The position numbers and the translations under genes are program-made. From a virus (Duplodnaviria > Caudoviricetes), in the IMG/VR virus record IMGVR_UViG_3300034375_007338, positions 1 to 53,782 of that record: a DNA stretch of 53,782 nt. The stretch is one strand, 5' to 3'. The notes under the pieces were generated by a model that saw only the letters and a list, made by a program, of their open reading frames with translations, had not been told where the DNA came from and did no database searches. Shown one piece after another: positions 1 to 53,782 of the stretch; position 1 is the first letter of the stretch, and the number at the start of each line of letters is the position of its first letter.

Positions 1-299
1 CTACCCTTAGCTTGTTCGAGACGCTCAATAGTAATACTATCGGTCCCCCTAGCCAAACCACTAGTGCGACTAGTCCGCAACGGGTTAGGGTTCGGGACTA
101 GTTGCGTGTCGAGGAGGTCCTCGTCCTGGTAGACGAGATCCTTCGTGGTCTTCGTCCACCTGGAGGCTTGGGTCAGAACGGCATCGCGCTCATCCAGGAT
201 GAGATGGTCGGCAGCGTGAAGGAGCCCCAGGACGACGTGAAGGTCGTCGGCACACTTCACGGCATGCTCGTTATTCAGAACACGGATCAAGTCTACTGC
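1..299 (+). repeat. Terminal direct repeat, left copy (pairs with 53484..53782)
   Basis: Direct alignment: 299 bp, no indels, 11 substitutions at 105,111,114,120,138,165,240,249,252,258,264. Confidence 0.97.
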
Positions 300-434
300 C
301 TGCGGGATAAGATCGTGCGCGTAGTCTAATGGCTTGCCCTCTTTAATAGTGTCCTGGACGGTGTCTAGCACGCGCTGCAGCGTCTCCTGGATGGCTTCGT
401 GGTAGTCGGCGCAGGTGAGGTCTTCGGCTTTCAT
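1..434 (-). CDS. Hypothetical protein spanning the circular junction (154 aa, MKAEDLTCADYHEAIQETLQ...; ends at stop 53453)
   Basis: ATG at 434 is in frame with ORF 53453..53773; all 11 differences between the repeat copies are synonymous in this frame; extended -10 upstream. Confidence 0.85.
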   Translation of the reverse strand, partial: MKAEDLTCADYHEAIQETLQRVLDTVQDTIKEGKPLDYAHDLIPQAVDLIRVLNNEHAVKCADDLHVVLGLLHAADHLILDERDAVLTQASRWTKTTKDLVYQDEDLLDTQLVPNPNPLRTSRTSGLARGTDSITIERLEQAKG

Positions 435-474
435 GGTGGCTAATGGTAGGGCAAGCAAAATCGCTCGCATGTAC

Positions 475-483
475 ATGGTAGCA
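475..483 (-). promoter_or_regulatory. Extended -10 promoter (TGcTACCAT) for the junction-spanning gene
   Basis: TGn-TAnnnT match followed by a short hairpin (GCGAGC-gatttt-GCTTGC) and a CCCTACC leader. Confidence 0.5.
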
Positions 484-613
484 CACTTCGCGGCCTTTTT
501 GGGGCGGCAAAGTCAAAAATGCCTATAGGGATTTCCCTAGTGTATTATTGTGAGATTGTGGCTCCGCTCCTGGTGAATTATGGTAGGCGCAAAAAGTTAG
601 GGGCACTATTGAA

Positions 614-713
614 TAGCAAGCGGCAACTCTTAGCGGCTAGCAAGCGGCAACTCTTAGCGGCTAGCAAGCGGCAACTCTTAGCGGCTAGCAAGCGGCAACT
701 CTTAGCGGCTAGC
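614..713. repeat. Perfect tandem repeat, 24 bp x4 (TAGCAAGCGGCAACTCTTAGCGGC)
   Basis: Read directly. Confidence 0.95.
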
Positions 714-743
714 TAATACGTTAGTGGCTTCCCACTTCGGCGC

Positions 744-810
<67 letters not shown>

Positions 811-870
811 TGCGTGGTAATGGGGACCGACCTAGACCTTTACAGACCTAGACCGATCCCCGACCTACCA

Positions 871-1173
871 CTAGGCGGTCTCTTGCTCCTGGAGCGCGCA
901 TGCTCGCAGGAACTCCAGCGTCTCCAGGATCTTCTCCTTGCTGCCCTTGATCCCGAAGTAAGCCTTCACGTCCTTCAATCGCCAATGGCGATGGGGCTTC
1001 ATGCCGTGACTGCAGAACATCCTCAAGTCGCGCACGCTGCAAAGCAGGTTCCACGTCGGCCAATCGAACTTCTTCGATCCGCCATCAATGAGAAGGTCGA
1101 ACGTCTGTTCGGCGTCGTCCAGGCCAGCCCAGAAAGGAGCGGAGAAGTCGAAATCTTTCGAAGTGAATTCCAT
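871..1173 (-). CDS. Hypothetical early phage protein (GMKPHRHWRLKDVKAYFG motif)
   Basis: Protein-like composition, coupled by TGATG overlap to 1173..1388. Confidence 0.8.
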   Translation of the reverse strand: MEFTSKDFDFSAPFWAGLDDAEQTFDLLIDGGSKKFDWPTWNLLCSVRDLRMFCSHGMKPHRHWRLKDVKAYFGIKGSKEKILETLEFLRACALQEQETA

Positions 1174-1388
1174 CAGAGAAGCCCCCTCGCTTTCGCGACT
1201 TCAGCGAACATCGAACTGTCGGCAGCCTGGACAGCGACGAACTCTTCGAAAGCTGAAGCCACGTCCCATCCCTCATCGAAGAAATCGCGATAGAAGAAGA
1301 GGTCGGGGAAATCGTGGAGCCCCATGCCGAATTCGGCAGAGATCATGCCGTCCAGGCGAGTAACCCATTCCTTGAATTTCATTCTCAT
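1173..1388 (-). CDS. Hypothetical early phage protein, 71 aa
   Basis: ATG downstream of a sigma70-like promoter; coupled to the next gene. Confidence 0.75.
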   Translation of the reverse strand: MRMKFKEWVTRLDGMISAEFGMGLHDFPDLFFYRDFFDEGWDVASAFEEFVAVQAADSSMFAEVAKARGLL

Positions 1389-1435
1389 GTCTGAATAGTG
1401 GTAGGAGCGAGCCCGATTGGCTCGCCGTTGCCCCT

Positions 1436-1463
1436 ATTCTAGCGTCCCTGCGAGGGGTTGCAA
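1436..1463 (-). promoter_or_regulatory. Sigma70-like promoter TTGCAA-N16-TAGAAT
   Basis: Consensus match, followed by hairpin GCGAGCC..GGCTCGC and a CTCCTACC leader. Confidence 0.6.
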
Positions 1464-1484
1464 GGGTTCGGGAGCAAAAAATAC

Positions 1485-1905
1485 CCCCTAGGATTCCCCT
1501 AGGGGTTTTCCCTAGGGTTGCCGCCGAAATCGCTGCGCGATTTCCCCTAGGGGTTTTCCCTTAGGGGAACCGACCTAGGGATCCTCCGACCTATCGCTAC
1601 GCGATTTCCCCTAGGGGTTTTCCCCTAGGGGTTCCGACCTAGTCCGACTGGGGATTTCCCCGAATCGCTACGCGATTTCCCCTAGGGGTTTTCCCCTAGG
1701 GGTTTCGACCTAGTCCGACTGGGGATTTCCCCAGGCAGGGAAAATCGCTTCGCGATGGGGTTTTCCCCTAGGGGTTTCTCCTCAGCCGACCGAGACTTTC
1801 CCTATTAGGGAAAATCGCTTCGCGATGGGGTTTTCCCCTAGGGGTTTTCCCATAGACGACCAAGAAATACCCCACCCAGGGAAATACCTGAGTGGGGTAG
1901 GGGAA
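1485..1905. repeat. Palindrome/hairpin array 1: five units with ATCGC-N3-GCGAT followed by CCCCTAGGGG-type palindromes and a CGACC tail
   Basis: Hairpins start at 1529, 1593, 1664, 1744, 1814. Confidence 0.9.
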
Positions 1906-1909
1906 AGCC

Positions 1910-2170
1910 CTAGCTTGTTTTTTGCTGGAGCTTCAGGGCCTTCTCAAGTTCTTGGCGAGTGAAGTTAGTCACCTTCTCCTCTCGCTTCCCGTAACGGACT
2001 TGAATACTGACAAGCCCCTTCTCCATATGGAGAAGTTCGGGGACCGTTGTATAGGTCGATCCCCACGGCGTATTAATGACGAAGTCTTTCGGCTCGATCA
2101 TGTCCGTCAGGAGCGCCTTCTTCGAATTGTAGACACGCCCATAAGCAGGCGAGAAATTTGCGAATCGCAT
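1910..2170 (-). CDS. Hypothetical phage protein (PAYGRxY motif); probable start at ATG 2170
   Basis: ORF 1910..2248; ATG 2170 lies downstream of a TACAAT box (2218..2223), a hairpin and a C-rich leader. Confidence 0.75.
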   Translation of the reverse strand: MRFANFSPAYGRVYNSKKALLTDMIEPKDFVINTPWGSTYTTVPELLHMEKGLVSIQVRYGKREEKVTNFTRQELEKALKLQQKTS

Positions 2171-2389
2171 AGTTTGAAGTGGTGGGGAGTCGCCGGAGTG
2201 GCGATCTCGAAGATCAAATTGTACGGCGAAATCAAGGCTAGGAGACATAAAAAAATGGTATCTATTTTTAGGGGGTTACCCGTAGGTCACTAAGGGAGGG
2301 TTTTCCGTTTGGCGTGGTCCGGGTTTACCCGTAGTGTCAAGAGGGCTTTCCCTAGTTCAAGGGTATGACCTAGACCGACCCTGGTTCTC

Positions 2390-2880
2390 CCCGAAGTCGC
2401 AGAGCGACTTCCCCTAGGGGAAGTCCCGTAGGTGCATCGACTGGGGTTTTCCCCGAATCGCAAAGCGATTTCCCCTAGAGGTTTTCCCTTAGGGGAACCG
2501 ACCTAAGGGTTCCCCGACCTATCGCAAAGCGATTTCCCTTAGGGGTTTTCCCCTAAGGGGTCCGACCTATCGCAAAGCGATTTCCCCTAGGGGTTTTCCC
2601 TTAGGGGGTCCGACCTAGCTTCGCTAGGGTTTTCCCCTAGGGGTTTACCCATAGGCCGACCAGACTTCCCCCACCCTGGGGAAATCCCCTATGGGGCTAT
2701 GGGTAACTCCGTACCCGCTACAGGGAAAACCCCTAGGGGTTTATACTGTTAACAGACCCGACTTTCCCCTAGGGGAAATTACCTATTGGGCTATGGGTAA
2801 TTACCTATTGACACTACGGGTTTACCCATAGCCACATAAGGGAGACCACCTACCAAAATAGGGACAACCCTTAGGGGTCA
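2390..2880. repeat. Palindrome/hairpin array 2, same unit family as array 1, decaying rightwards
   Basis: Hairpins at 2394 (AAGTCGC-AGA-GCGACTT), 2457, 2521, 2569 (ATCGC-AAA-GCGAT) and 2615 (CTAGC-TTC-GCTAG). Confidence 0.88.
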
Positions 2881-3039
2881 ACCCTTACGTCTGAAACGCT
2901 CTGTGTTGGCCTGTGTTGGACGCTGGCCCGAACGTGGGCTAGGACCCTCAGACGAGACGAACGTCGATTTCTATGGGTATTCCCTATGTTTCGAGCGCCT
3001 GGCTATGGGTAATCCCCTAGGGGCAAGAGGGCTTACCCT

Positions 3040-3440
3040 GGAACGGGCCGGAACGGGCCGGAAGTGTTCCGGAGTGCCTCATTTTGATAAATAGCTATTG
3101 TTATTCATTAAACATAGCTACTAGTTACTAGTTATTTGTTACTAGTCTAATGTTTGTATATGCCATGCGGAACGGTCTAGAATAAATATAATTATTAATG
3201 AAAACCGCCCTGGAGACCATGCCAGTAACGATTTAGCCACCGCAGATCATACTAGGAACGGAACACCCCGCTCCCCCTTTTCTCTAAGAGAAAGAATAAA
3301 TATATATATACAACTAACCTATAGCATATAGCCCAGATCCGATCGGCTAGACGGTCGTTCCGGTGTTCCAGGCGACGAGGGTATTCCCCTAGGTGAAAGC
3401 CCATCGACAGATTCTAGACTCGGTCCGCCCCGTTCCCCTG
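3040..3440. other. Candidate replication origin: AT-rich core flanked by GGAAC/GTTCC boxes in both orientations
   Basis: Most AT-rich tract of the genome (3085..3200 and a TATA run near 3300), non-coding, with repeated GGAACGG and GTTCC motifs. Confidence 0.4.
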
Positions 3441-3445
3441 GATTA

Positions 3446-3480
3446 TGGTACACTTTAAAGGCTAGGCAATTTCGCCTAGT
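3446..3480 (+). promoter_or_regulatory. Extended -10 (TGgTACACT) plus 5' hairpin upstream of the GP88-like gene
   Basis: TGn-TAnnnT followed by CTAGGC..GCCTAG. Confidence 0.55.
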
Positions 3481-3497
3481 ATTTGCTCTCTAATAAC

Positions 3498-4391
3498 ATG
3501 AATCAAAAAATTACGCGCCGCTCGGCGTGCCTGGATATTCGTACCCGTTGGTCTTCTATTGTCGATAACGCTATCGACAACGGTCTTCGGAAAACGCTAC
3601 GGGATAGCGCGATCGATGCACTACCTAAAGGCGACACGTTTAACCTGTCACGCCCAAACTCGAGTGCCAAGGTGGATAAGGGAAGAAAGATCGGTATCGA
3701 TACCTTGATCCTTTATCTATCGCCAGCGGGAGAAGCTGTTACTAGCACATTGTGCGAGGATAGCGTTCCCGCTTGTCGTGCACTTTGCCTAGGCCATAGT
3801 GCTGGGCGAATGATCATGACACCTAGCAAGCTTGCTAGGCTCTGGCGAACTGCACTATGGCTAGGCGATAGGGAAGCGTTTATTCGCTTGCTTATCATGG
3901 ACCTGGAATCGCTGGCACTATCGGCTAAGAAACGCGGACACGTTACGGCGTTCCGTTTCAACGGCTCTACCGATATTGAAGTTCCCGACGTTATCCGCTC
4001 CACTTGCGAGCGCCTGGGCGTTAATGGCTACGGCTATACTAAGTCGCTAGCTCGTGCTATGGCTTCGGTAGGTACTCGATACCCTTTGACGTTTTCCTTT
4101 TCGGGTAACGTGGACCGAGCACTAGTCGCTAGGGACCACGGAGCGAACGTCGCTATGGTATTTGATACCGCTGTCGGCCAAGAATTGCCGGACGCTATCG
4201 TTCTCGGGCACGAGCCCGTAGGCGTTATCGACGGCGATATTTCCGACGCTAGGTTCCTGGATCCGAAAGACGCAGACGGCCGAGGACTTATCGTCGGTCT
4301 ACGCTTCAAAAAGGCGAAGGCCATTGATAAGGGTCTGAAACAAGCTATCCGCTCCGGATGGGTTGTGGAAGCCGATAGGGTAGCCTTTTAG
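3498..4391 (+). CDS. GP88-family phage protein (radical-SAM-like, C-x6-C-x3-C)
   Basis: LYLSPA...CEDSVPACRALCL, RFNGSTDI, YGYTK, LTFSFS, IDGDISDARFLDP and IVGLRFK motifs characteristic of gene product 88; ATG at 3498 within ORF 3483..4391. Confidence 0.8.
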   Translation: MNQKITRRSACLDIRTRWSSIVDNAIDNGLRKTLRDSAIDALPKGDTFNLSRPNSSAKVDKGRKIGIDTLILYLSPAGEAVTSTLCEDSVPACRALCLGHSAGRMIMTPSKLARLWRTALWLGDREAFIRLLIMDLESLALSAKKRGHVTAFRFNGSTDIEVPDVIRSTCERLGVNGYGYTKSLARAMASVGTRYPLTFSFSGNVDRALVARDHGANVAMVFDTAVGQELPDAIVLGHEPVGVIDGDISDARFLDPKDADGRGLIVGLRFKKAKAIDKGLKQAIRSGWVVEADRVAF

Positions 4392-4408
4392 GCTACCCAC
4401 TAAATAAC

Positions 4409-4437
4409 AGGGGGACCCTACGGGGTCCCCTTTTTTC
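4409..4437 (+). terminator. Rho-independent terminator after the GP88-like gene
   Basis: GGGGACCC-loop-GGGTCCCC stem followed by TTTTTT. Confidence 0.85.
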
Positions 4438-4451
4438 GTTTCCGTCCGGCG

Positions 4452-4601
4452 GGAGCTGGAACCCGTCGCCCTGGAGCTGGAACCCATCGCCCTGGAGCTG
4501 GAACCCGACCCCCACGACCCCCACGACCCCTTGACTCGACCCGACCCCGGAACGGCAGACTCGACCCGACCCCGGAACGGCAGACTCGACCCGACCCCGG
4601 A
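4452..4601. repeat. Nested tandem repeats: 21 bp x~2.5, 10 bp x2, 25 bp x~3
   Basis: GGAGCTGGAACCCRTCGCCCT at 4452/4473/4494; GACTCGACCCGACCCCGGAACGGCA at 4533/4558/4583. Confidence 0.9.
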
Positions 4602-4680
4602 CTGCGGGTTTACCCGAACCAGACTACAGACATAAAGCGCCCCGGAATTAGCTCCTGACTCTGTACACCTCTGGACCGTT

Positions 4681-4735
4681 TGCTAGACTGACCGAGTCGC
4701 TGAAGCATTCCGCTTCGGCCCAACTCCTACCTATC
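4681..4735 (+). promoter_or_regulatory. Extended -10 (TGcTAGACT), 5' hairpin and CTCCTACC leader of the main early operon
   Basis: Motif match directly before ATG 4736; hairpin GCTGAAGC-attcc-GCTTCGGC. Confidence 0.55.
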
Positions 4736-5143
4736 ATGCGAACCTACATCGCTCGCGGCTCCAACGCATGGAACGCCGCGACTAACAAGACGGAGGCGGT
4801 CATCCGCCTGATGGCCCGAGGGGTCTCCCTCGACAAGATCGCCCTGGTCTCCACCGAGGGCCGGGCCACGGTGGACTGGAACGGGTCCGTGAACTCGACC
4901 CAGAGCATCCGCGACGAGCGGCTCACCTTCGGTGAGTTGGCCGACGCCCTCTACGATCGGATGACGGACGTGCAGGAGGTCCTGGCCAAGCTCCTGGAGG
5001 ACGACGTGCTGGCCACGAAGGACTTCCCCACGTCGGCTCAGGACTACCTGGAGGAAGCCACGAAGCGCGTGGGGGACCTCGTGGACCATCCCATGAGCGA
5101 CCTGGAGTCGAACCTCCTGGAGAACGGGGAGGTGAAGTCGTGA
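4736..5143 (+). CDS. Hypothetical early protein
   Basis: High GC3 codon bias, GTGA overlap with the next gene. Confidence 0.85.
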   Translation: MRTYIARGSNAWNAATNKTEAVIRLMARGVSLDKIALVSTEGRATVDWNGSVNSTQSIRDERLTFGELADALYDRMTDVQEVLAKLLEDDVLATKDFPTSAQDYLEEATKRVGDLVDHPMSDLESNLLENGEVKS

Positions 5144-5484
5144 GCCTCACGAACCGCTACATGGCCGATTGCAGTGGGGCCGTCAAGCCCGAGGTGGGCA
5201 TGCCCGCGACCCTGCTCTACTGGTCCGATCGGAAGCCCGCCACGGTCATCCGCGTCTCGCCCTCCGGGCGCGAGGTCGCGATCCAGCGCGACCGCTCCAC
5301 GCGGATCGACGACAACGGCATGTCGGAGGGACAGGTCTACGAGTACGAGCGCGACCCGGACGCCCTCGTGGAGGTCTTCACCCTTCGCAAGAACGGGCGC
5401 TGGGTCGAGAAGGGCAGGCGTATGGGCCAGGGCCTTCGCCTCGGCCTCGGCTACCGCGAGGAGTACTACGACTACTCGTTCTAG
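5140..5484 (+). CDS. Conserved phage hypothetical protein (GxxAT...SDRxPATV...YYDYSF family)
   Basis: GGAGG RBS, codon bias, motif pattern common in phage early genes. Confidence 0.85.
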   Translation: MSLTNRYMADCSGAVKPEVGMPATLLYWSDRKPATVIRVSPSGREVAIQRDRSTRIDDNGMSEGQVYEYERDPDALVEVFTLRKNGRWVEKGRRMGQGLRLGLGYREEYYDYSF

Positions 5485-5607
5485 ATCCCCAAGGGGGCCG
5501 GGCAGGCCCCCGCACCCGCCGCTCACCCGGCGGGCGTCGCCTCCTGTCTGATGGAGGCCCCAGGCGCACGGACGCGCACCCTACCAACCCCTACCGCCCC
5601 GATCCGA

Positions 5608-5822
5608 TGATCACCATCCCCGCAGACGCCTACACCGGGCAGCTCGACCTGCTCCTGGCGGACGGCACCGTCGTCTACATGGACGGCTGCTCCCGCTGGC
5701 ACGCCGCCCACCCGGACGGCACCGAGACCTACCTGGGCCGCGCGGCCCACCTCAACCCCCCGTCCCTGTCTGGGGACGGCGGCTACGACTACGACACCTA
5801 CACCGAGAGGTTCGCCCGATGA
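5608..5822 (+). CDS. Hypothetical protein (MITIPADAYTGQ...)
   Basis: 3' part of ORF 5169..5822 with strong codon bias; ATGA overlap with 5819. Confidence 0.7.
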
Positions 5823-6205
5823 AGCGCACCCCTTTCGTGACCCTGCACCGAGGCTCCGTGGAGGAGCCTATCTTCGACGCGCTGAAGAACGCCGAGGGCG
5901 TGCAGCCCGACCCGAACATCCTGAGCCCGAGAGGGCTCAAGGACCTGATGCTCCTCTACCTGGAGCCCGGCAGCCCCGACGTGCCCGCCTGGGCCGACGA
6001 GGTCTGCAACGGTGCGGGCAGCGCCTACCGTAACTCCGGGCCTTTCAAGCTCCGCGCGGTGAGCACCGCGTGCGGCCTAGACCTCAGCCTGGAGGTGAAC
6101 TCCAAGACCTCGCTTCACGCGCTCCTCTCTTTCGAGACCTTGCTGAAGGCGCTGGTCGAGGAAGGCAACGGATGCACCGTGATCGTCGACCACTTGGAGG
6201 ACTGA
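5819..6205 (+). CDS. Hypothetical protein
   Basis: Coupled ORF, codon bias. Confidence 0.8.
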   Translation: MKRTPFVTLHRGSVEEPIFDALKNAEGVQPDPNILSPRGLKDLMLLYLEPGSPDVPAWADEVCNGAGSAYRNSGPFKLRAVSTACGLDLSLEVNSKTSLHALLSFETLLKALVEEGNGCTVIVDHLED

Positions 6206-8117: not shown

Positions 8118-8443
8118 AACGTATTTCACCGGGCCACGCCGCCCTCATGATCTCCCAGCTCCCGCGCAACGGGCAGCTCTTCTCCTGCAAGTGGATCAAG
8201 AAGAACGGCGAGGTGCGCTTCGGCACCTTCCGGCTGGCCGAGACCATGTCCAAGGACAAGACCGGGGAAGGACTCAAGTTCGACCCGGCCAAGAAGGGCC
8301 TTCTTGTCGTCTACGACACGCGCAAGAAGGCGTACCGCATGATCACCGTTTCGACCATTGTCGAGATGAAGATCGACCGTGAGGAGTACCTGATTGTCAG
8401 GGACTCCGTTCTCGAACCCACCCCCGCAGAGCTTCCTTTCTGA
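8114..8443 (+). CDS. SH3 beta-barrel / WYL_2-like (DUF2693-like) protein
   Basis: FSCKWIKKNGEVR...VVYDTRKKAYRMI pattern; start ATG 8114 within ORF 8006..8443. Confidence 0.7.
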   Translation: MKRISPGHAALMISQLPRNGQLFSCKWIKKNGEVRFGTFRLAETMSKDKTGEGLKFDPAKKGLLVVYDTRKKAYRMITVSTIVEMKIDREEYLIVRDSVLEPTPAELPF

Positions 8444-8721
8444 TGCAGAACTTCCCCGAACCCGACGAACCCTACGACGCCTCTGTCTTCGTGCCTGAGC
8501 CTGACCAGACCGCTGAGGTCATCCGAGAGCTTCGGAAGAAGTCCAAGCTGTCGCGAGCCCAGGTCGCCGTCAAGGCAGGCATCGGCATCGGCGTGCTTGA
8601 GCGCGTCGAGCAGGGTAAGCAGAGCCCGTCCCTGATGACCCTCCTGGGCCTCGCCTACGTCTTCGACGTTGGCGTCGAGGAGATCCTGGACGCGGCTCAC
8701 GACGTGCCGTACAAGGCATGA
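8443..8721 (+). CDS. XRE/Cro-family HTH transcriptional regulator
   Basis: IRELRKKSKLSRAQVAVKAGIGIGVLERVEQGKQSPSLMTLLGLAYVFDV. Confidence 0.9.
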   Translation: MQNFPEPDEPYDASVFVPEPDQTAEVIRELRKKSKLSRAQVAVKAGIGIGVLERVEQGKQSPSLMTLLGLAYVFDVGVEEILDAAHDVPYKA

Positions 8722-8885: not shown

Positions 8886-11594
8886 ATGCCCGGACTCCTC
8901 ACGTTCCCTACCCGTTATGTCCCCGGCTACGGACCCGACCGCCCGCTCACAGCAGGGGGAAACTGGTTCGAAGGCACGACCGCGTTCACACAGCGGTTTG
9001 ACTCTGCTGCCCACGGCGTCTGCTACGAGCCCGTGCTCGTCGATGGCCTCGCTGTAAGACTGACGAAGCCTGCCGTTCGCCAGAACATCATCAAGCCCGA
9101 TCAGGTGCGCTGCCAGTGGATCGCGGTGGACGTGGACCTGCCGGGCAAGGCCGACTGGACCGAGGCGCTCCTGGGCGAGCACAACGCGCTGCTGGAGGCT
9201 CTGCCCTACCCTCTCAACCAGTGGCTCTACTGGCACACGACCGAGCACGGGTATCACCTGTGGTACTTGCTCGACGAGACCGTGATGCCGCACCAGCACG
9301 AGAGTCTGTCTCAGTCCGTGCGCGACGGGCTGGTCCTCAACGGGGTCGAGGCCGACGAGACCTGCCGCGACTGGACGCGCCTCGTGGCGCTGCCCAGGAT
9401 CATCAAGGAGAACGGCATCAGCACTGCCGAGCAGCCCTGGTTCTCCGAGCGGTGGCAAGCTGGCGAAGACGGGCTCGCACTCACGCTCCAGGTCGGGTCG
9501 ATCTCTGTCGCAGCGGCAACGCCTTCCAAAGGCCCGGCCATGCCCGTCTCGACCGGGTCTGGTCCCTCATTTGCCTACAGCCCCGAGGACGCGCTCGGGC
9601 TCGTCTACACGCACGGCGACCTGGACTACCCGACCGAGAAGGGGCGCATCCTTCGCAAGGCGGTTGAGAGCAGCCTCATGCGGGCCGGGAACCATACCAT
9701 CGCCGCCGAGCAAGTCCTCGACGGTCAGCCCTTCCCGCAGGGGATGCGCGACACGTCCGTGGCACAGACCGTGGGCTGGCTGGTCTCGAAGGCCCGGTCG
9801 GTCTCAGCCAAGGGCATCACTCCCGACCACCTGCTCGGGCTGCTCTTGCCCGCGTGCCAAGCGACAGACATCGACTCAGGTCCGCAGGACAACGGCAGGC
9901 CGTGGATCGAGAAGGCGGCAGAGAAGACCCTGGAGTACTGGCGCTCAGACGAGGAGTCTGCTGCACGCAAGCAAGTCGAGCTGATCCGCAAGGCACAGAA
10001 CTCGACCACGCCCGAGGGCCTGTGCGACCTTCTCTACAACAAGCTGAAGGACCCGCTCCTGAACCGTGCGACCAACGAAAGCTGGTACGAGCAGCTTCAG
10101 ACGTATGCGTTCGTTCAGACCTCGGCCACTAGCGTGTTCTGCCTCGCACCCAACGGCTGCTACCAAGGGCCGTTCCCCTCGTTCCTGATGGCGATCGGGA
10201 TGTCTGCACGGAATGGGGTCGGGGTACTGCTCGGCGTGCGGTGGATCGACGACTCGGGCAAGACCAAGGAGATCTCTGAGTCGAGCGCCAAGAAGGACTA
10301 CTGCCGCTTCGCGACGGTCGAGCGGCAGGTCTATCACCCGCTCTCGATCCCTGAAGAGGATCGCTTCGAGCCTACGCGCCTGGACCAGCAGCAAGTGTGC
10401 CTCTTCGAGCGCAAGTTCAGGCCGCAGGAGATCGCCGCCGCACGCAGCGAGTGGGTCGAAAAGTACCTGCACGTCCTGACCGGGTCGTCGCCCGAAAAGC
10501 TCACCGAGGACTACAGGCAGCTGATCTACTGGCTGACCTACCTGCGAGACTTCGACAGCTCGCAGCTGCCCATGCTGTACATCTACGGCACCGCTCGTTC
10601 GGGCAAGACTCTCCTGGGCAACGCCATTGAGATGCAGGCGGCGACCGCTCGCCCGAGCACTGCCGGGGGCAACTACAACTCGCACTACGCCAAGGGCCTG
10701 ATCCTGATCTACGACGACGTGCAGCCGATCTCCTACGGCAACCACGGGCAGATGAAGCGGGCCTTGGGCGAGTTCCTGAACGTACTGTCGGGTCAGCAGG
10801 TCGAGGTCCACGAGAAGTACAAGGACGCGCGGGGGCTTCAGTACCCCTGGCGCGTGGTCGTGCTCAACAACTCGTCGGCGTTCTTCGACGACCTGATGCA
10901 GTCCCACAATTCGCACTCCGACCGAGACAAGCGAGACGCCCTGGCTCGTCGAAGCATTCTGCTCAAGGTCAACCCGTACTGCCGCGAGTGGTTGTTTGAC
11001 AATGCTAGGGGCCGGGCCGACGTGGTTTCGGAAGTCGCCGCGCACATCGCGTGGATGAATCAGAACCGTGAGGAGCTTCAGCCCATCTTCTCGGAGTATG
11101 AGAAGCTCGCGGAGCCCGGAGGCATGCGCCTCGTGTCGAACACTCTGGCGATGGGGACCGCAGAGTCTTCGCAATCTCTGGACGAGATTCAGATGATCGC
11201 CGCCGTGGTCCGTCAGCTGTCGAAGTGCCTCCGGTCGAGCATGATCAACGACAACTACGCGATCATGGATCGCTCGGGACAGGTCCTGGCTGTGCGCGGG
11301 GCCTTGATGGAAGCTCTTGGGGCCAAGGAAGCGACGACTTCGCAGCGGTTCCACATGAAGCAAGCCATTGGCTCGGTCATGAACCAGTGCGGAGTCAGTG
11401 CTACTCAAGGCACTGCCATGCAGAAGGTCGAGGGGCAGTGGGTCGAGTCACCCACCAAGTCAGGCAAGCGGCGATGGTTCGCACTCGACTTCCAGGCGCT
11501 CTCGCATTTCTGCGAGTTCCTGCCGCCGGGGATCGACCACACAGTGCAGGAGCTGATCGAGGAGTGCCAGGAGGTACGAGACCTTGGACTATAA
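8886..11594 (+). CDS. AEP-type primase / PriCT / SF3 helicase fusion
   Basis: AEP motifs IAVDVD, TTEHGYHLW, DxxRL; PriCT-like GMRD; Walker A GTARSGKT, Walker B ILIYDD, motif C VVLNN. Confidence 0.85.
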   Translation: MPGLLTFPTRYVPGYGPDRPLTAGGNWFEGTTAFTQRFDSAAHGVCYEPVLVDGLAVRLTKPAVRQNIIKPDQVRCQWIAVDVDLPGKADWTEALLGEHNALLEALPYPLNQWLYWHTTEHGYHLWYLLDETVMPHQHESLSQSVRDGLVLNGVEADETCRDWTRLVALPRIIKENGISTAEQPWFSERWQAGEDGLALTLQVGSISVAAATPSKGPAMPVSTGSGPSFAYSPEDALGLVYTHGDLDYPTEKGRILRKAVESSLMRAGNHTIAAEQVLDGQPFPQGMRDTSVAQTVGWLVSKARSVSAKGITPDHLLGLLLPACQATDIDSGPQDNGRPWIEKAAEKTLEYWRSDEESAARKQVELIRKAQNSTTPEGLCDLLYNKLKDPLLNRATNESWYEQLQTYAFVQTSATSVFCLAPNGCYQGPFPSFLMAIGMSARNGVGVLLGVRWIDDSGKTKEISESSAKKDYCRFATVERQVYHPLSIPEEDRFEPTRLDQQQVCLFERKFRPQEIAAARSEWVEKYLHVLTGSSPEKLTEDYRQLIYWLTYLRDFDSSQLPMLYIYGTARSGKTLLGNAIEMQAATARPSTAGGNYNSHYAKGLILIYDDVQPISYGNHGQMKRALGEFLNVLSGQQVEVHEKYKDARGLQYPWRVVVLNNSSAFFDDLMQSHNSHSDRDKRDALARRSILLKVNPYCREWLFDNARGRADVVSEVAAHIAWMNQNREELQPIFSEYEKLAEPGGMRLVSNTLAMGTAESSQSLDEIQMIAAVVRQLSKCLRSSMINDNYAIMDRSGQVLAVRGALMEALGAKEATTSQRFHMKQAIGSVMNQCGVSATQGTAMQKVEGQWVESPTKSGKRRWFALDFQALSHFCEFLPPGIDHTVQELIEECQEVRDLGL

Positions 11595-18570: not shown

Positions 18571-19125
18571 GTGCGGATAGTCGCGTTTGACCCAGGGCTG
18601 CACCACTTTGTGTGGACATCCACGTCGTGGTCCGACGACGGTGCGCTCCAGGGAGTCGAGCAGGTAGGGCTTCTAGAACGCAAGAAGCCTCTGAGAAAGG
18701 GGCTGGACGCAGTCACAGACACAGTCAAGATGCTGACCAGCTGTGATATTGCCTCCTTATTTCCCCAGGAGCCCTACGACCGCTTCGAGGTTGTGCTGGT
18801 CGAGACTCAGCACTTCAAAGCACGGAACGTCCGCAAGGAGGACATCCGAGACCTAGCTATGGTCACCGGGGCTCTCGCGGCAGCGTTGGGCAGGGAAATC
18901 CAGTGGGCACCCACAGGCCAGGGTGGTTGGTCCACTACCAAGAAAGACATCCGCCGCGAGCGGCTGATCCAGTACTACCTGCCTGACGCCGACCTGAGCA
19001 AAGAGCACTTCGACTCCGTGCTGGTAGGTCACAAGCGAATCACGAAGCGGCAGTACCACGACGCAATCGACACTGTCGGCATGGCGCTTTGGCACGCCCG
19101 TGGACGCCCTCGGCAGGGCGTCTAG
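18571..19125 (+). CDS. RuvC-like Holliday junction resolvase
   Basis: IVAFDPG, VLVETQ, HDAIDTVGMA acidic tetrad. Confidence 0.8.
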   Translation: MRIVAFDPGLHHFVWTSTSWSDDGALQGVEQVGLLERKKPLRKGLDAVTDTVKMLTSCDIASLFPQEPYDRFEVVLVETQHFKARNVRKEDIRDLAMVTGALAAALGREIQWAPTGQGGWSTTKKDIRRERLIQYYLPDADLSKEHFDSVLVGHKRITKRQYHDAIDTVGMALWHARGRPRQGV

Positions 19126-19667
19126 ACCCCAGCCATCAGCTTGTGCGCCAGGGCGCTTAGAGCAGCTGCCACGGCCCCCAGCAAGGCAGTCAGCGCCCCC
19201 AGCAGCTTCTTGTTGTCTCGCAAGAAGCTCGTGATCACGATCGAGCTGTCCACACGAACGTCTTGGCAGTCCGTAGCCCGTCGCTTGCCTGAGTGGACGT
19301 TCACCTTCGGGACGATCTGGTTCAAAAAGAACTCAAAGCTGCCGTCCTCCTTTTTGATGGGCCACACGACCAAGTCGATCTGAACCGGGTAGCCGCTCTT
19401 CTTGAGGTAGGTCTTCGTCATGCGGAAGTGACTCAGCTCCCCTCGCGCCACTTGATCCTTCATGGCCACGGTCGCCATCACGTCTGAAGGGTGCGTGATA
19501 TCTTGGTAGGTCAGAGCCTCAAGCTCGACCTGCGAGTACTCCAGCAGCTCACACAGCTTCTGGTTGACGGCCATGAACTTGCCGTCTTCGGACACAAGAC
19601 AACAGCCGACCTCCGCAAGCCGCCAGAACTTCTCCAGCACTCGCCTCTCTACTGCTTCGAGCTTCAT
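19122..19667 (-). CDS. Stand-alone PAS/PAC domain protein with C-terminal hydrophobic helix
   Basis: DGKFMAVNQKLCELLEYSQVEL..QDITHPSD..YLKKSG..IKKEDG, a classical PAS S-box/PAC signature; RRATD linker; LLGALTALLGAVAAALSALA. Confidence 0.9.
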   Translation of the reverse strand: MKLEAVERRVLEKFWRLAEVGCCLVSEDGKFMAVNQKLCELLEYSQVELEALTYQDITHPSDVMATVAMKDQVARGELSHFRMTKTYLKKSGYPVQIDLVVWPIKKEDGSFEFFLNQIVPKVNVHSGKRRATDCQDVRVDSSIVITSFLRDNKKLLGALTALLGAVAAALSALAHKLMAGV

Positions 19668-48007: not shown

Positions 48008-48380
48008 ACCGAATGAAGCGCGGCGTTCCCTGATCGGGGCCTGAGCCCTGTCTGCCGACCAACTCGTTCATCAGTGAAATCACGCCCGGCGGTCGCTGAC
48101 TCTTTTCGGTGCTCGGCGTCACCACAGTTTCGATCTTGGCGGCAAAGTTGACTGTCGATCCGCACTTGGGGCATCCTAGCCGTCCTGTCTTGTATCCGCC
48201 CGAGGTGTAGCTATGGTGGGCTCGCAGTTGCCCGTCGCATCCAGGGTTGGGGCAATCTTTCCACGGGTTGTCCTGTTCGTGATTGCCACAGTTCGGGCAC
48301 ACAGGTCCCTCTAGCTCGTATCCGCAGTTGTAGCAGGGTCGCTTCCAGCGCGGGTCGTTGTACTTGCGCGGACCTACCAT
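47982..48380 (-). CDS. Double zinc-ribbon protein, possible Ogr/Delta-like late regulator
   Basis: CYNC, CPNC, CPNPGC, CPKC; overlaps the TerL stop. Confidence 0.6.
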   Translation of the reverse strand: MVGPRKYNDPRWKRPCYNCGYELEGPVCPNCGNHEQDNPWKDCPNPGCDGQLRAHHSYTSGGYKTGRLGCPKCGSTVNFAAKIETVVTPSTEKSQRPPGVISLMNELVGRQGSGPDQGTPRFIRFIRRFRPS

Positions 48381-49828
48381 GTCTGTTTGAAGATGTCGGT
48401 GTGTTCGGACGGTTCGTCAGACCCGAAGAATGCTCCCATGTCTAGGCTCTGCGAGCCGAGGATGTCACCTTCTTCAGAGAACGCCATGATGAGGGCGTCG
48501 GCGCGGTCGGGACTCTTCTTGAATCCTCGGTCGCGGTACTTCTTCTTGGACTCGACCTCGATCCTGTCCTGGACGTAGGTGAACTCGCGCGTGACCAACT
48601 GCTGGTGCAGGACCGGATCGTCAGGGATGTGGACCGTGCTGTGTTTCATGCGGTGCCGCAGGTTGAACCACGCCGCGCTCAGGTGGTTGCGGTAGCCCTC
48701 GACCGGGCTCTTGCGTGCGGGGTGGAACTCGCACAGGTTCAGGCCCATCTCCAGGTAGTCGTAGGCCAGAGCCTGTCCCATGCCGACGCTGTCGATCACG
48801 AACACAACGGTGGACGGGTCCCAGCCCATCTCCAGGGCCAATTCGCGGCTCCGAGCCGCAGCCACGTTTGGGTCACAGATCGTGGCTTCCCAGTGGATGA
48901 TGGCGTTGCCTGACCGAACGTAGATGACGTTCTCGTCGCCCCCGAACCTCGCGAAGTCCACGGAGATGACGCGCAGCCCTGGCCCGAGCGCAATGGCCAA
49001 CCCCATAGGGTTGCCGACCGACTCCTCGATGAACCGCAGGGGCAGAACGGTCTTAGAGCCCTCTTGAGGAAACTCGCCCATCACGCCGACGAGCCACATG
49101 TCGCTGTCTTCCCCGAACTCCTTGCGGACCTGCTCGATGCGCTCGGGGTCTACGAGGTCGGGGCGCTCGCGCGACAGACTCAGCTTGTCGATCGTCAAGT
49201 TCCACGGCCAGTAGTCCTTCCGAGAGTGGAACATCTCGTAGGCCGTGCCTGAAGTGCGGTCGGGGTTGAAGATGGAGATGAACAGGTTATTCTTCTGCGA
49301 GCAGGTACGCAGCAGCGCCGCGATGATGTCCTCGCGGATACCTGTCAGCTCCTCGGCCATGATGGTCATGTCCGGGTGGTGTAGACCACGGATTGCGTTC
49401 TCGTCCGACGCGGTGGCAGCGAAGATCTTCCAGTGCGGATGATCTTTCATGGTCAACTTGGCCCCGCCCAGATTCACCATGTTGCCCAAGATCGGGCTAC
49501 GCGCGACGTGGTTGGAGATCTCGGCAAAGAACACCTCACGACATTGCCGCTCGGTCGGCGCGGTGTTGACGTGCAGCGAACCCGGTGAGCGCCACCAGCG
49601 CCACATCCCCCCGGCGCTCAACGAAGCAGTCTTGCCGACCCCAGTTCCGGCCTTGACCCCGATTTGCTTCGGCGTCTGGTTGGGGTTCAACGTCAGGTCT
49701 TGGATCGTCTGCAAGAAGTCCACCTGCTTGCCCGCCGGAGTGAACCGGATAACGTGCTCGCAGAAGTAGAAGATGTCGTCCTTGCTACGACGGACCATTT
49801 CTTGGAGCGGCTTATTAGTGCTTGCCAT
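48374..49828 (-). CDS. terL: Terminase large subunit
   Basis: Walker A AGTGVGKT, APTERQ, GLH, NP motif, GEFP; nuclease VDFARFGGD, IDSVGMG, SPDRADA. Confidence 0.93.
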   Translation of the reverse strand: MASTNKPLQEMVRRSKDDIFYFCEHVIRFTPAGKQVDFLQTIQDLTLNPNQTPKQIGVKAGTGVGKTASLSAGGMWRWWRSPGSLHVNTAPTERQCREVFFAEISNHVARSPILGNMVNLGGAKLTMKDHPHWKIFAATASDENAIRGLHHPDMTIMAEELTGIREDIIAALLRTCSQKNNLFISIFNPDRTSGTAYEMFHSRKDYWPWNLTIDKLSLSRERPDLVDPERIEQVRKEFGEDSDMWLVGVMGEFPQEGSKTVLPLRFIEESVGNPMGLAIALGPGLRVISVDFARFGGDENVIYVRSGNAIIHWEATICDPNVAAARSRELALEMGWDPSTVVFVIDSVGMGQALAYDYLEMGLNLCEFHPARKSPVEGYRNHLSAAWFNLRHRMKHSTVHIPDDPVLHQQLVTREFTYVQDRIEVESKKKYRDRGFKKSPDRADALIMAFSEEGDILGSQSLDMGAFFGSDEPSEHTDIFKQTW

Positions 49829-50201
49829 GGGTTCTCAAATAGTCGGCAGCTGCTTGCAGGCGCTGCGGGTCATCCCGAAACTTGCCAAGCCCTAAGTTGC
49901 AGGAGCTGCACAACAGCCCGCGAACCTTCTTGGTGTAGTGGCAATGATCAACACTCAACCTATTGCGACGGCCTTCGTCCTCTGCACCTCGGCAGATGGC
50001 GCAAGCGCCGCCCTGCTTTCGAAAGATCTCAAGGTAGTCTTCGTAGAGCAGGCCATACTGCTTCCGCATATCGTTCTTCCAGTTGCAGCGTTTGCAACTG
50101 GACGACAGTCCGTCAAAGCTTTGAGCCCTTCTGTGATACTCCGAACGATCCAGTAGCTCCTCGCAGACGCTACACTTCTTTTTTCGTGTAGGGGAAGCCA
50201 T
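49815..50201 (-). CDS. Endonuclease VII-family nuclease
   Basis: CAIC..LSVDHCH..VRGLLCSSCNLGLG..DD. Confidence 0.92.
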   Translation of the reverse strand: MASPTRKKKCSVCEELLDRSEYHRRAQSFDGLSSSCKRCNWKNDMRKQYGLLYEDYLEIFRKQGGACAICRGAEDEGRRNRLSVDHCHYTKKVRGLLCSSCNLGLGKFRDDPQRLQAAADYLRTHGKH

Positions 50202-50364: not shown

Positions 50365-50572
50365 GACAGTTCAAGAACATTGTATTCCAAGTCTTGATTG
50401 CTTCCTTGATGGTGTTCTGCTTTGGACCTCGCGTGTCGCAGCACATCGACTCGCCGCAACGCACCTGAACCATTCGGCTTCGCTTCCCTATCCTCACTGA
50501 GCTGAGGGTTGCTCTGCACCCGCAATGAGGGCAATCCGCCAACGCTGGTTCATGTGATTTGCTTGGGTTCAT
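50354..50572 (-). CDS. Lar-like restriction alleviation Zn protein
   Basis: CPHCG..VRC...C...GP....EAIKTWN; ATG 50572 with GGAG-like upstream. Confidence 0.7.
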   Translation of the reverse strand: MNPSKSHEPALADCPHCGCRATLSSVRIGKRSRMVQVRCGESMCCDTRGPKQNTIKEAIKTWNTMFLNCHER

Positions 50573-51356
50573 CGTCGCCGCCTTGGGTGAGCAGTTCCAT
50601 GATTTGCCCTTCGAGCGACTCTGTCTTCTCCTCCTTGCCGAGACCATACATGCTGGCGATGTTCTTCGTGGCGTTGGCCTTGAGGCTCGGTCCAGCGTCA
50701 ACGTGTTGTGCGGCTGCGAGCATTTGAAGCTCTGCTTCGGCGCGAGCCTCTTCTTTGCTGCGCCGCATGGCCAAGGCCATGATGGCTTTCCACGAGTGGA
50801 TCAATTGGATGGCACCTCGGCGCGACTGGTTGCAGATGCGCGTCAGACTGGCGGCGGTCTGAAAGACGGTGCGGTGTTTTGCGTGCTGTGAGGCGACCCA
50901 TTCGACGCAGAGCATCTCAAGGTCATCCAGGAGCGTCAGAGACGGCCAAAGCTCCGTAGAGCGCACTAGGTCCCCGTAGGGGTAACCTTGGTCCTTGCAG
51001 GTCTGGCAGAGCATGGCGCGAATGCCTTCGCGCAACGCGGGCGTGCGCCACGCGAGAAGGTCCCTGAGGTCTGGGTCGTCCAGTAGCGCCCCGAGGGGTA
51101 GGTTCGCTGCTAGGTTAGCTCTGCGCCACGACCGGACCCACTCCGAAGCGGCTTGCCGGGCATCGCTCGGGCAATCAAACGCTGTGGCCACAGGCGGCGA
51201 AGAGTACATCCAGTGCCTGAGGCACAAATACACCACGAATCCCGCTTGCTCGGACTCGGAGGCCGAAGCCAAGTCTTCGATGCTAGTCAGCGGAGCCTCG
51301 CCCCCGCCCGGCAACGAGACCGGATACGGGGGCGGGTTTTCGGGTTCGAGGTTCAC
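50550..51356 (-). CDS. Hypothetical protein, candidate terminase small subunit
   Basis: GTG 51356 overlaps the upstream stop (GTGA); helical C-terminus (KANATKNIASMYGL) and position upstream of TerL. Confidence 0.5.
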   Translation of the reverse strand: MNLEPENPPPYPVSLPGGGEAPLTSIEDLASASESEQAGFVVYLCLRHWMYSSPPVATAFDCPSDARQAASEWVRSWRRANLAANLPLGALLDDPDLRDLLAWRTPALREGIRAMLCQTCKDQGYPYGDLVRSTELWPSLTLLDDLEMLCVEWVASQHAKHRTVFQTAASLTRICNQSRRGAIQLIHSWKAIMALAMRRSKEEARAEAELQMLAAAQHVDAGPSLKANATKNIASMYGLGKEEKTESLEGQIMELLTQGGDDEPKQIT

Positions 51357-51421
51357 TTGGGTTTCTTGCGCTTGCGCTTCCCGGTCGGGCTGACGGGGTA
51401 CTTGACGCGCTTCTTGGCCAC
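51353..51421 (-). CDS. 22-aa highly basic peptide MAKKRVKYPVSPTGKRKRKKPK, not in ORF track
   Basis: GAGG RBS, GTG start, stop overlaps the next start. Confidence 0.6.
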   Translation of the reverse strand: MAKKRVKYPVSPTGKRKRKKPK

Positions 51422-51426
51422 GGGGA

Positions 51427-51531
51427 TTACCTCTTCTTGGGCTTCTTCTTCCCACCCGCAGAGGGCGGCAGTTCCCGCTTCGCGGGCTTCTTCTTCATTC
51501 CCTTCTTTCCGTAACCGATTCCTTTGGGCAT
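51427..51531 (-). CDS. 34-aa highly basic peptide MPKGIGYGKKGMKKKPAKRELPPSAGGKKKPKKR, not in ORF track
   Basis: AGGAGG RBS upstream of ATG. Confidence 0.7.
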   Translation of the reverse strand: MPKGIGYGKKGMKKKPAKRELPPSAGGKKKPKKR

Positions 51532-53242: not shown

Positions 53243-53483
53243 GGAGCGTCTAATACGGATGTTATCAAAAAATTAGCGTATCCGATAAGCTATTCGCTAA
53301 GGGATAGACCCGTCTAATGTATAGACTAGTCTATCCCTTATCTGTTAGCTACTCCGGTCCCTTATACCATAGGGGCATAAGCGCTGCAGCGATACCGACT
53401 ACGATAAACGCTATGCCGTAGACTATTAGCATAGTCAATTGAATGGCTTCCATCATTTCCGGAACGTCTCCTCAACGATGCGC

Positions 53484-53782
53484 CTACCCTTAGCTTGTTC
53501 GAGACGCTCAATAGTAATACTATCGGTCCCCCTAGCCAAACCACTAGTGCGACTAGTCCGCAACGGGTTAGGGTTCGGGACTAGTTGAGTGTCAAGAAGG
53601 TCTTCGTCCTGGTAGACGAGGTCCTTCGTGGTCTTCGTCCACCTGGAAGCTTGGGTCAGAACGGCATCGCGCTCATCCAGGATGAGATGGTCGGCAGCGT
53701 GAAGGAGCCCCAGGACGACGTGGAGGTCGTCCGCGCACTTGACGGCGTGCTCGTTATTCAGAACACGGATCAAGTCTACTGC
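53484..53782 (+). repeat. Terminal direct repeat, right copy
   Basis: Matches 1..299 with 11 substitutions. Confidence 0.97.

Follow-up and report, generated by a model that had tools for sequence, protein, structure and literature searches.

What function might be served in a phage by some 30 copies of a short repeat spread over 1.9 kb, part of them joined to perfect hairpin-capable dyads? The question is raised by an IMG/VR virus record of a tailed phage (IMGVR_UViG_3300034375_007338; Duplodnaviria, Caudoviricetes), whose whole stretch of 53,782 bp was analysed and is referred to below as the window. An initial annotation, made from the sequence alone, had described an array of about ten triloop mini-hairpins coupled to palindromes at 1485..2880, and had listed as possible roles a replication origin, an ejection or packaging signal, a decoy operator array or a structured non-coding RNA. 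The array is real, and the repeat field that contains it extends to about 3390. Within that list, comparative data favour the packaging signal. We read the field at 1485-3390, tentatively and with less than even confidence, as a packaging or genome-end cis-region (pac/cos-proximal or concatemer-junction-like), a reading that we consider the best one because the same repeat is linked to terminase genes in every other lineage where neighbours could be named, and because it has a parallel in the terminal repeats of T7 and T3.

The hairpin-capable elements stand as first described. Eight exact ATCGC-N3-GCGAT dyads (at 1529, 1593, 1664, 1744, 1814, 2457, 2521 and 2569) and two stem variants, GTCGC-AGA-GCGAC at 2396 and CTAGC-TTC-GCTAG at 2615, make up ten dyads with a 5-bp stem and a 3-nt loop within 1529-2627, five in each of two clusters that flank one small gene. 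ATCGC is the commonest stem (8/106) among the dyads of this shape in the whole genome. Units of the left cluster (1529..1865, plus strand) are spaced by 64, 71, 80 and 70 nt, and those of the right cluster (2396..2660, plus strand), with the stems GTCGC, ATCGC three times and CTAGC, by 61, 64, 48 and 46 nt.

The dominant repeated element of the field is a 14-bp iteron of double-strand type, TAGGGGTTTWCCC, also found with a trailing C, which is shared with phages free of hairpins. The hairpins are a lineage-specific add-on and not the core of the array. With up to two mismatches allowed, the iteron has 29 matches where 1.33 are expected; 27 of them lie in 1500-3391, 20 on the plus strand, the minus-strand copies being mostly right of 2679. 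All 26 matches to the 12-mer TTCCCCTAGGGG with at most one mismatch fall in 1494-3397 (the reversed control has none), as do the 15 genome copies of CCCTAGGG, every one of them within 1497-3022 (0.57 expected; none of 100 shuffles reaches 15). This changes the reading of the repeated unit, which had been given as a dyad, a palindrome and CCGACCT. All three parts are present, but the palindrome CCCCTAGGGG is the joint between two head-to-tail iterons, and alignment to a foreign array shows TAGGGGTTYCGACC followed by TAG to be a degenerate third iteron, which explains CCGACCT as its tail. The composite unit consists of a 13-nt dyad, two to three iterons and a variable tail. Periods of 14, 48, 61-64 and 70-71 nt are recovered by Tandem Repeats Finder and a repeat finder, which also detect a direct repeat of 114 nt (89% identity) common to both clusters. 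Outside the clusters, the field comprises CCCCTAGG, CCCCTAGGGG and CCCTAGGG palindromes at its left edge (1485..1528, plus strand), isolated iteron variants TAGGGGGTTACCC (2269) and GGGTTTACCC (2321) within 2269..2353 (plus strand), variants of the TTTACCC, TCAACCC and ATTACCC types in both orientations at 2661..3050, and a last iteron-like palindrome, TTCCCCTAGGTG, at 3379..3397.

The recurrence of this iteron in other phages is the first argument for a role in packaging. Degenerate scans of uncultured phage records and contigs for tandem arrays of the 14-bp family found tandem runs of 3 to about 25 copies in other lineages, and in all five of those with nameable neighbours an operon encoding the small terminase subunit (TerS), the large subunit (TerL) or both lies 0.1-1.1 kb downstream of the array. 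In G003 and L218, three clusters (1818-3130 in G003) are followed by a DUF6321 gene, TerS (phrog_1206) and TerL (phrog_38). In G002, L199, G004 and L109 the array has more than 10 copies; to its left follow a 138-aa open reading frame (ORF), TerS (phrog_1206) and TerL, and on its far side lies an HNH endonuclease or a primase. In L154, L205 and L203 the array precedes a 227-aa ORF and then a TerL homologue. The iterons of G005 and L200 have a 124-aa ORF and TerL to their left and GP88 to their right; those of G006 and L206 have GP88 leftward, and an Sf6-type TerS followed by TerL rightward.

The DNA signal appears to be more conserved than the proteins that surround it. BLAST comparison of the window with these records finds only TerL (23-28%) and GP88 (32%) in common, and phmmer searches of window ORFs with the TerS proteins of the other lineages give nothing below E 0.3, whereas the non-coding stretch 2857-2887 matches G003 at 30/31 positions. 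Dyads of the kind found here were absent from the iteron arrays of the other lineages. Comparison by eye, unscored, also shows a non-coding block of about 30 nt (2958-2990, AACGTCGATTTCTA..ATTCCC..TA) common to L203 and L205, whose TerL is only 23% identical. No description of the iteron family was found in the literature searched, and a search on CCCCTAGGGG returned no phage paper; most subscription journals lay outside its coverage.

Motif matches also occur in other kinds of DNA. A 2,043-bp viral contig (L204) encodes a CRESS-type Rep (Viral_Rep and RNA_helicase) and has an intergenic region with two CCCCTAGGGG-N4-CCCCTAGGGG hairpins; it is an unrelated single-strand DNA virus in which this palindrome pair presumably forms origin stem-loops. 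Metagenome contig L115, with at least 19 tandem copies of the 14-nt CCCCTAGGGGG beside TTTAGGG telomere-type repeats, is probably a eukaryotic chromosome end and not a phage. Many single genomic matches to the double palindrome come from Streptomyces (L161, L164, L167 and others); these probably represent operators of a copper repressor and have nothing to do with the phage array, since CsoR operators are described as G-tract pseudopalindromes (PMC3902906).

A second argument comes from the terminal repeats of known phages. In the 160-bp terminal repeat of T7, the dyad CAACC-TTC-GGTTG at nt 68 lies 25 nt from CCCTAAGGG at nt 93; elsewhere in the 39.9-kb genome, such a palindrome occurs only as the copy that belongs to the right-end repeat. 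TTCCCCCATAGGGGGTA is present at nt 24, and the first 340 nt of T7 hold 11 (N)ACCTAA/CCTAAAG repeats, partly at 13-nt spacing, with five more at the right end. The annotated terminal repeat of T3 has ACCCCTAGGG followed directly by TTAACC-TTC-GGTTAA (nt 69-95). The pair of triloop and palindrome is conserved between T7 and T3, whose repeats otherwise differ, and the set of triloop dyad, CCC(C)TA(A)GGG palindrome and short repeats with a period of about 13 nt occurs in T7, T3 and the window; the first 300 nt of Syn5 contain nothing similar. The pair noticed in the window therefore recurs at an established locus of packaging and genome ends, whose elements in T7 have been assigned roles in packaging and concatemer processing. 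The likeness covers both arrangement and place: a TTC-triloop dyad with a stem of 5-6 bp adjoins the palindrome, CC-TA-RRG repeats of about 13-nt period flank the two, and the whole set has the terminase end of the genome on one side and the early end on the other. The systems differ in that T7 and T3 have one pair per repeat and not ten units, ACCTAAAG heptamers in place of TAGGGGTTTWCCC, and a co-directional instead of a divergent gene order; they also have a direct terminal repeat, where the window has an assembly closing on itself, which does not reveal ends. A literature search on CCTAAAG gave unspecific matches only.

Gene order in the window is compatible with such a placement. The record's ends overlap (1-299 against 53484-53782, 96.3% identity over 299 bp), so the assembly is of circular type and closes on itself at about 53.5 kb with no gap to left or right. 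Genes left of the field lie on the minus strand from 1388 across the contig junction to 47593, and include those for a 412-aa protein, a phrog_7595 protein, a 301-aa protein, a Lar-like protein, an endonuclease VII and TerL; given the closed ends, this leftward operon is unbroken as far as TerL, which lies downstream at a distance of about 5.0 kb from the field. To the right, plus-strand genes run from 3483 through the replication genes. The field is the divergence point between the leftward, TerL-bearing operon and the rightward early and replication operon. TerL itself (48374..49828, minus strand) has directly upstream of it the gene for endonuclease VII (49815..50201, minus strand), of a junction- and cruciform-resolving family, whose adjacency we count in favour of packaging.

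In mechanistic terms, 1485-3390 would be a non-coding protein-docking field of 14-bp iterons, on which a ring-shaped small terminase, or a partner protein, might dock, or around which the DNA might wrap, by virtue of periodically kinkable G-tract, T-tract and TA steps. Each of the ten units would add a perfect 13-nt dyad, RTCGC-N3-GCGAY, whose pairing could be maintained by selection or by hairpin-templated repair and which would come into play on unwound or single-stranded DNA, for example by forming a hairpin or cruciform in end processing. The physical genome ends would then lie at or near the field. Terminase binding, wrapping, the part played by the hairpins and the position of the ends are what we infer here; the anatomy of the field, its strain-level conservation and covariation, its gene position, its recurrence upstream of terS and terL and the T7/T3 element pair are what was observed. 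Shared contig ends in other lineages were considered as physical ends and set aside, the ends of L203 and L205 being offset by 27 nt and L154 diverging. Typing of TerL for packaging mode was uninformative, the best matches being assorted siphoviruses at 25-29%.

Several points weigh against this interpretation. The sole TerS-like candidate lies about 4.1 kb downstream of the field and TerL 5.0 kb downstream, and at least eight small genes intervene. Neither Pfam nor PHROGs yields a TerS in the window, and the candidate, the 301-aa protein (50550..51455, minus strand), which itself matches nothing in Pfam or PHROGs, is a weak lead resting on a feature-search score of 0.90 to viral clusters bearing a helix-turn-helix (HTH). 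The TerS candidates of the other lineages are mutually unrelated in phmmer comparisons (best cross E-value 0.029), with the exception of G002 and G003, which share one PHROG; the comparison therefore reveals no sequence-specific reader common to them all, and that part could equally well be played by a host factor or some other protein that they share. The region upstream of terS is also the seat of late promoters and regulators. The A+T-rich DNA beside the field fits an origin, as does a primase gene about 0.9 kb from the array in G004. The likeness to T7 and T3 is a resemblance of short elements and not demonstrated homology. Finally, the count of five lineages out of five leaves out six array-bearing loci without nameable neighbours (L127, L128, L133, L141, L142 and L158), and ten single-match viral loci were examined by tblastn only.

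Arrays of repeats in front of terminase genes are in themselves a familiar type of element. The pacL-pacC-pacR regions of SPP1 and SF6 likewise consist of direct-repeat sets in non-coding DNA ahead of the terminase genes, and the R-sites of lambda cosB are comparable terminase-recognition repeats. The field differs from these pac and cos sites in its extent (1.9 kb and about 30 sites, against roughly 0.1-0.3 kb), in lying 4-5 kb from the terminase genes and in its hairpin-capable dyads. In the part of the work available, the SF6 TerS is proposed to select intrinsically bent DNA through a ring of weak HTH motifs (PMC4737164). A TerS ring that chose bendable repeat DNA and not particular bases could allow unrelated TerS proteins to share one periodic signal.

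What is new, then, is a 14-bp iteron family found across lineages with diverged proteins; the size of the field, which spreads about 30 sites over 1.9 kb, in two clusters with a gene between them; and its fusion to covarying hairpin-capable dyads, with a parallel in the T7 and T3 terminal repeats. At its most general, the idea would be that TAGGGGTTTWCCC, with its joints CCC(C)TAGGG(G), is a packaging or genome-end signal shared across a broad range of mostly uncultured tailed phages whose terminases have diverged beyond recognition; that it is related to the T7/T3 terminal-repeat elements and read by DNA shape and not through base contacts, with one unit wrapped on each subunit of the TerS ring; and that it is fused in the window to hairpins kept by pairing and acting in end processing. 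We regard this full version as improbable. If the field is a packaging-recognition region, its cis-signal is better conserved than the proteins around it, which would bear on the still unsettled matter of how a small terminase locates the DNA of its virus and give the conserved palindrome-plus-triloop of T7 and T3 a testable function. The motif would also help to place pac or cos regions and to orient uncultured phage genomes.

An iteron-type origin is the alternative that the A+T-rich DNA brings to mind. According to it, an initiator would bind the 14-bp iterons and open the stretch at 3060..3330, which lies between the field and the first rightward gene and holds TAGTTAC 4.6 times at 3115-3146; candidate initiators are a D5/P4-alpha-like primase-helicase of 902 aa (8886-11594) and an HTH protein (8443-8721). 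The many tandem iterons do adjoin the region's only strongly A+T-rich DNA, with its 7-mer repeat (G+C is 0.51 in 2001-4000 and about 0.60 elsewhere), as in iteron origins such as lambda ori, P4 ori/crr and those of plasmids, and the two separated clusters recall P4, where ori and crr are separate repeat clusters. The rightward operon leads to the primase-helicase, a PD-(D/E)XK nuclease, a helicase and PolA, the primase gene of G004 counts on this side as well, and the dyads could be priming signals, for which G4 and ssiA offer examples in the available part of PMC13037366. Yet the nearest replication gene starts at 8886, more than 5 kb off, so that the iterons lie neither in nor beside an initiator gene, and the constant neighbour in other lineages is terS or terL and not a replication gene. 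DnaA boxes (TTWTNCACA, up to one mismatch) are absent from 1400-3480, though not every phage origin has them, and are fewer than expected in the whole genome (13 against 30); cumulative GC skew has no clear switch at the field. We consider an origin unlikely on this balance.

Relatives at the strain level allow a judgement on how the dyads are maintained. Among the 69 metagenome-contig loci returned by a motif scan, some align with the window in blastn: L112 and L113 (99% identity, window 615-4585), L137 (96-98%, 1737-2947), L116 (90%, the left cluster at 1397-1940 and part of the small gene), L130 (84%, 2282-4676) and L097 (76%, 441-1925). Four more share the motif only and the rest have no match, nor do 35 loci from genome contigs. 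Unit number varies between strains, as is typical of redundant docking repeats: the left cluster has five units in the window, five in L116 and two in L097, and the right cluster five in the window and three in L130. The isolated iteron variants at 2269..2353 are kept in L130 and L137, and the A+T-rich stretch in L130, while small genes are shuffled around the clusters from strain to strain.

The stems vary in a compensated manner, as the initial annotation had noticed. Our covariation set comprised 20 units (14 of them distinct) from the window and its relatives of 76-99% identity, with four stem versions: ATCGC/GCGAT, GTCGC/GCGAC, TCCGC/GCGGA (or GCGGC) and CTAGC/GCTAG. Pairing holds in 69/70 stem cells, changes on both sides occur at three of the five stem pairs (7 cells), and none of 500 shuffles does as well as the real units in pairing or in covariation; slid controls show 21-40% pairing. 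Both innermost pairs (GC...GC) are invariant. As the units are paralogues and orthologues of one another, the independent covariation events are few, about 3-4. The covariation is, on these alignments, evidence for intrastrand pairing, whether selected or arising from hairpin-templated correction, because a protein that simply read half-sites would need no outer positions that change identity yet stay complementary. Covarying 5-bp stems of this kind are a rare comparative hint of a DNA-level pairing constraint in a double-stranded DNA phage. When the adjacent palindromes are treated as a 10-bp hairpin, 97.9% of cells pair, and one of their pairs reads GC in 7 rows but GU in 6, the latter being a wobble possible on the plus strand only; few events underlie it, and it would be a weak hint as to strand.

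Such pairing might mean that the triloop mini-hairpins are themselves the functional unit, in single-stranded DNA, as N4-type promoters for a virion RNA polymerase, primase or ssi signals or SSB-resistant marks on whichever strand is first to enter or to be displaced. The stem covariation and the plus-strand G-T wobbles count for this, as does the folding of the left cluster, which is well beyond that of shuffles (z -8.6 to -9.5, either strand, as DNA or RNA), although any palindrome-rich DNA would give comparable values. Loops of the left cluster read GCA, GTA, GTA, GAA and GAA on the minus strand, exactly as first reported; those of the right cluster are AGA, AAA (three times) and TTC on the plus strand. 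Overall, minus-strand loops are GNA in six of the ten units and TTT or TCT in four, and the heptamer GCGNAGC occurs in six of ten, always on the minus strand. According to a 2026 review (PMC13037366), only GNA triloops give the extra-stable DNA mini-hairpin, and N4 early promoters have a 5-bp stem and GGA or GAA in the loop. All ten units here likewise have a 5-bp stem and a 3-nt loop; the N4 type as a class is defined by a stem of 5-7 bp and a 3-nt loop whose central base, on the template strand, is a purine.

The loops themselves argue the other way. Plus-strand TGC and TAC are replaced wholesale by AAA at orthologous positions in L116 and L097 (GCA and GTA becoming TTT on the minus strand), and because relatives replace loops by AAA or TTT, the extra stability of GNA loops does not appear to be what is conserved. 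The GC-GNA-GC rule formulated initially describes six of the ten units and does not extend to the relatives, and its heptamer is barely enriched genome-wide (70 against 54 +/- 7 expected; 2/100 shuffles reach 70). The ten copies form two tandem clusters, whereas the promoters of N4 number three and are dispersed, and no virion RNA polymerase was found: a six-frame search with PF00940 gives nothing at E<=1 (T7 control 9.9e-110), Pfam and PHROGs give none either, and the longest candidate considered, a 2050-aa ORF, has no PDB sequence match, although such searches might miss a very divergent polymerase. That agrees with the initial statement that the phage encodes no RNA polymerase, and leaves an N4-type promoter unsupported. 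A 5-bp stem is also too short for ready extrusion from duplex DNA, and the arrays of other lineages do without such dyads. Hairpins as the primary signal seem to us quite improbable.

Strong predicted structure on both strands would also suit a transcribed structured RNA (a long leader, an antisense RNA or a decoy or repeat mimic), and a repeat-rich region might be a T5-like injection stop. RNA-library contigs cover 2163-2337 (X23) and 2749-2899 (X20), but these two short contigs are unstranded, may be DNA carry-over, and include no hairpin unit. Rfam has no matching family (best E-value 0.29), which leaves the structured non-coding RNA of the initial list unsupported. The T5 iss offers a general likeness: it is described (10.1101/866236) as an extensive untranslated region, rich in repeats, inverted repeats and palindromes, with an ordered set of 8 DnaA boxes; these defining boxes are missing from 1400-3480. 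We hold an RNA or an injection-stop function to be very unlikely.

The position of the clusters, each upstream of a minus-strand gene start (1388 and 2170), suggests instead an operator or 'silencing' array, in which a small phage regulator would polymerise on the iterons and control the divergent promoters and the small gene, much as ParR does on R1 parC, where a promoter is flanked by two sets of five repeats, or as omega does on arrays of heptads and MetJ on tandem metboxes. Tandem self-symmetric units, in which both unit and junction are dyads, resemble arrays of ribbon-helix-helix type. A sigma-70-like promoter, TTGCAA-16-TAGAAT (1463-1436, that is 1436..1463 on the minus strand), precedes the leftward operon starting at 1388; it is a consensus match only, with 2 such sites in 1-6000 against 2.0 expected. 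Terminator-like hairpins, again consensus matches only, occur on the minus strand at 1505-1485 (with a T-run) and at 1868..1899 (13-bp stem), the latter directly 3' of the stop codon of the small gene. The HTH_3 protein at 8443-8721 could provide a regulator. Against this stand the number of sites, about 30 being far above the usual need of a regulator, and the failure of BLAST to find any regulator common to all iteron-bearing phages. Searches specific to the proposed binders were also negative: PF02195 (ParB_N) finds none, with controls positive; Pfam scans of 71 ORFs detect no ParA or ParM family; and PF02583 (CsoR/RcnR) has no match at E<=1, with controls positive in 8/14 genomes. An operator or centromere is in our view improbable.

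The small gene between the clusters, the only gene within the field, offers no evident regulator of this kind. It lies at 1910..2170 on the minus strand and encodes an 86-aa protein of a PAYGR..Y..KDF..VRY family; relatives share only its inner ATG (MRFANF start) and not the 112-aa ORF. An exhaustive HMMER search groups it with about 30 small proteins (PAYGR.Y..K...D...KDF....VRY). AlphaFold modelling reached a pLDDT (predicted local distance difference test) of 58 from the single sequence and of 92.5 from the 30-sequence alignment, and the latter model has no match to a DNA-binding fold (best Foldseek E-value 1.4, best VIA Z 4.1). The family alignment has no meaningful match in Pfam, the best being single-member, unrelated families (E 0.0064). 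As an iteron binder, the protein was set aside, its model being confident and without a fold match. Its gene changes place relative to the clusters, standing left of the left cluster in L116, and L137 carries one more small ORF, placed at window position 1935. GP88 (PF17338; 3483..4391, plus strand), the first gene of the rightward operon, was considered as a binder too. At 80 loci with GP88 homologues no 400-bp segment holds more than 4 iteron-like matches, so there is no general link between GP88 and the motif; a profile search against the PDB gave no match, and a literature search found no paper on PF17338. A GP88 homologue of 69% identity (P0002) is encoded on a 56-kb ENA contig.

The array is not an assembly artefact, a concern that the initial annotation had raised. 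Logan contigs from two (X1 and X4) of 19 DNA runs reproduce 820-1566 and 1818-2478 with no difference, 1818-2606 with three and 2578-3112 with one, and themselves end at repeats, while the JGI contig L113 covers 615-4585 unbroken at 99.3% identity. A 41-kb relative that is 100% identical (G001) is without the array region. The 19 runs containing the stretch come from 12 studies, all labelled freshwater. Contig depth is about twofold higher from 1 to ~4000 than in 4200-6000 (about 25-31 against 15.5 in X1, 11-12.7 against 4-7 in X4), a difference that might reflect either a long terminal repeat collapsed in assembly or simply the co-occurrence of strains. The record is labelled 'linear' in spite of its closed assembly; strain variation is seen at the join, and an ORF at 3-476 carries on across it into 53453-53782.

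The window is the whole IMG/VR virus record and has a siphovirus-like gene content by Pfam and PHROGs. Its structural and packaging genes include a portal, an XkdF-type protease, an E-type capsid protein, a tape measure and TerL, and its replication genes the D5/DUF5906-type primase-helicase, the PD-(D/E)XK nuclease, the helicase and PolA; no tRNA genes were found. A blastn search of INPHARED with window 1-6000 found no cultured DNA relative, the capsid matches cultured phages at 28.5% at best, and single-protein scans of viral contigs gave no close relatives. Other tandem repeats lie near the field. An intergenic 24-nt repeat (614-713, 4.2 copies at 100% identity) recurs with changes in L116, and GCTCGG is repeated nine times at 753-810. 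Just 3' of the GP88 gene, three tandem arrays of 21, 9 and 25 nt occupy 4452-4601, and unrelated tandem arrays also stand near GP88 at several distant GP88 loci. Farther away, a 2050-aa ORF downstream of the tail genes (38722-44874, plus strand) has about five internal repeats of 0.4-0.5 kb with 65-86% DNA identity (39546-44490), and no Pfam, PHROG or PDB sequence match. A PAS-domain protein, an unusual cargo for a phage, is encoded at 19122-19667 on the minus strand, adjoining the portal gene.

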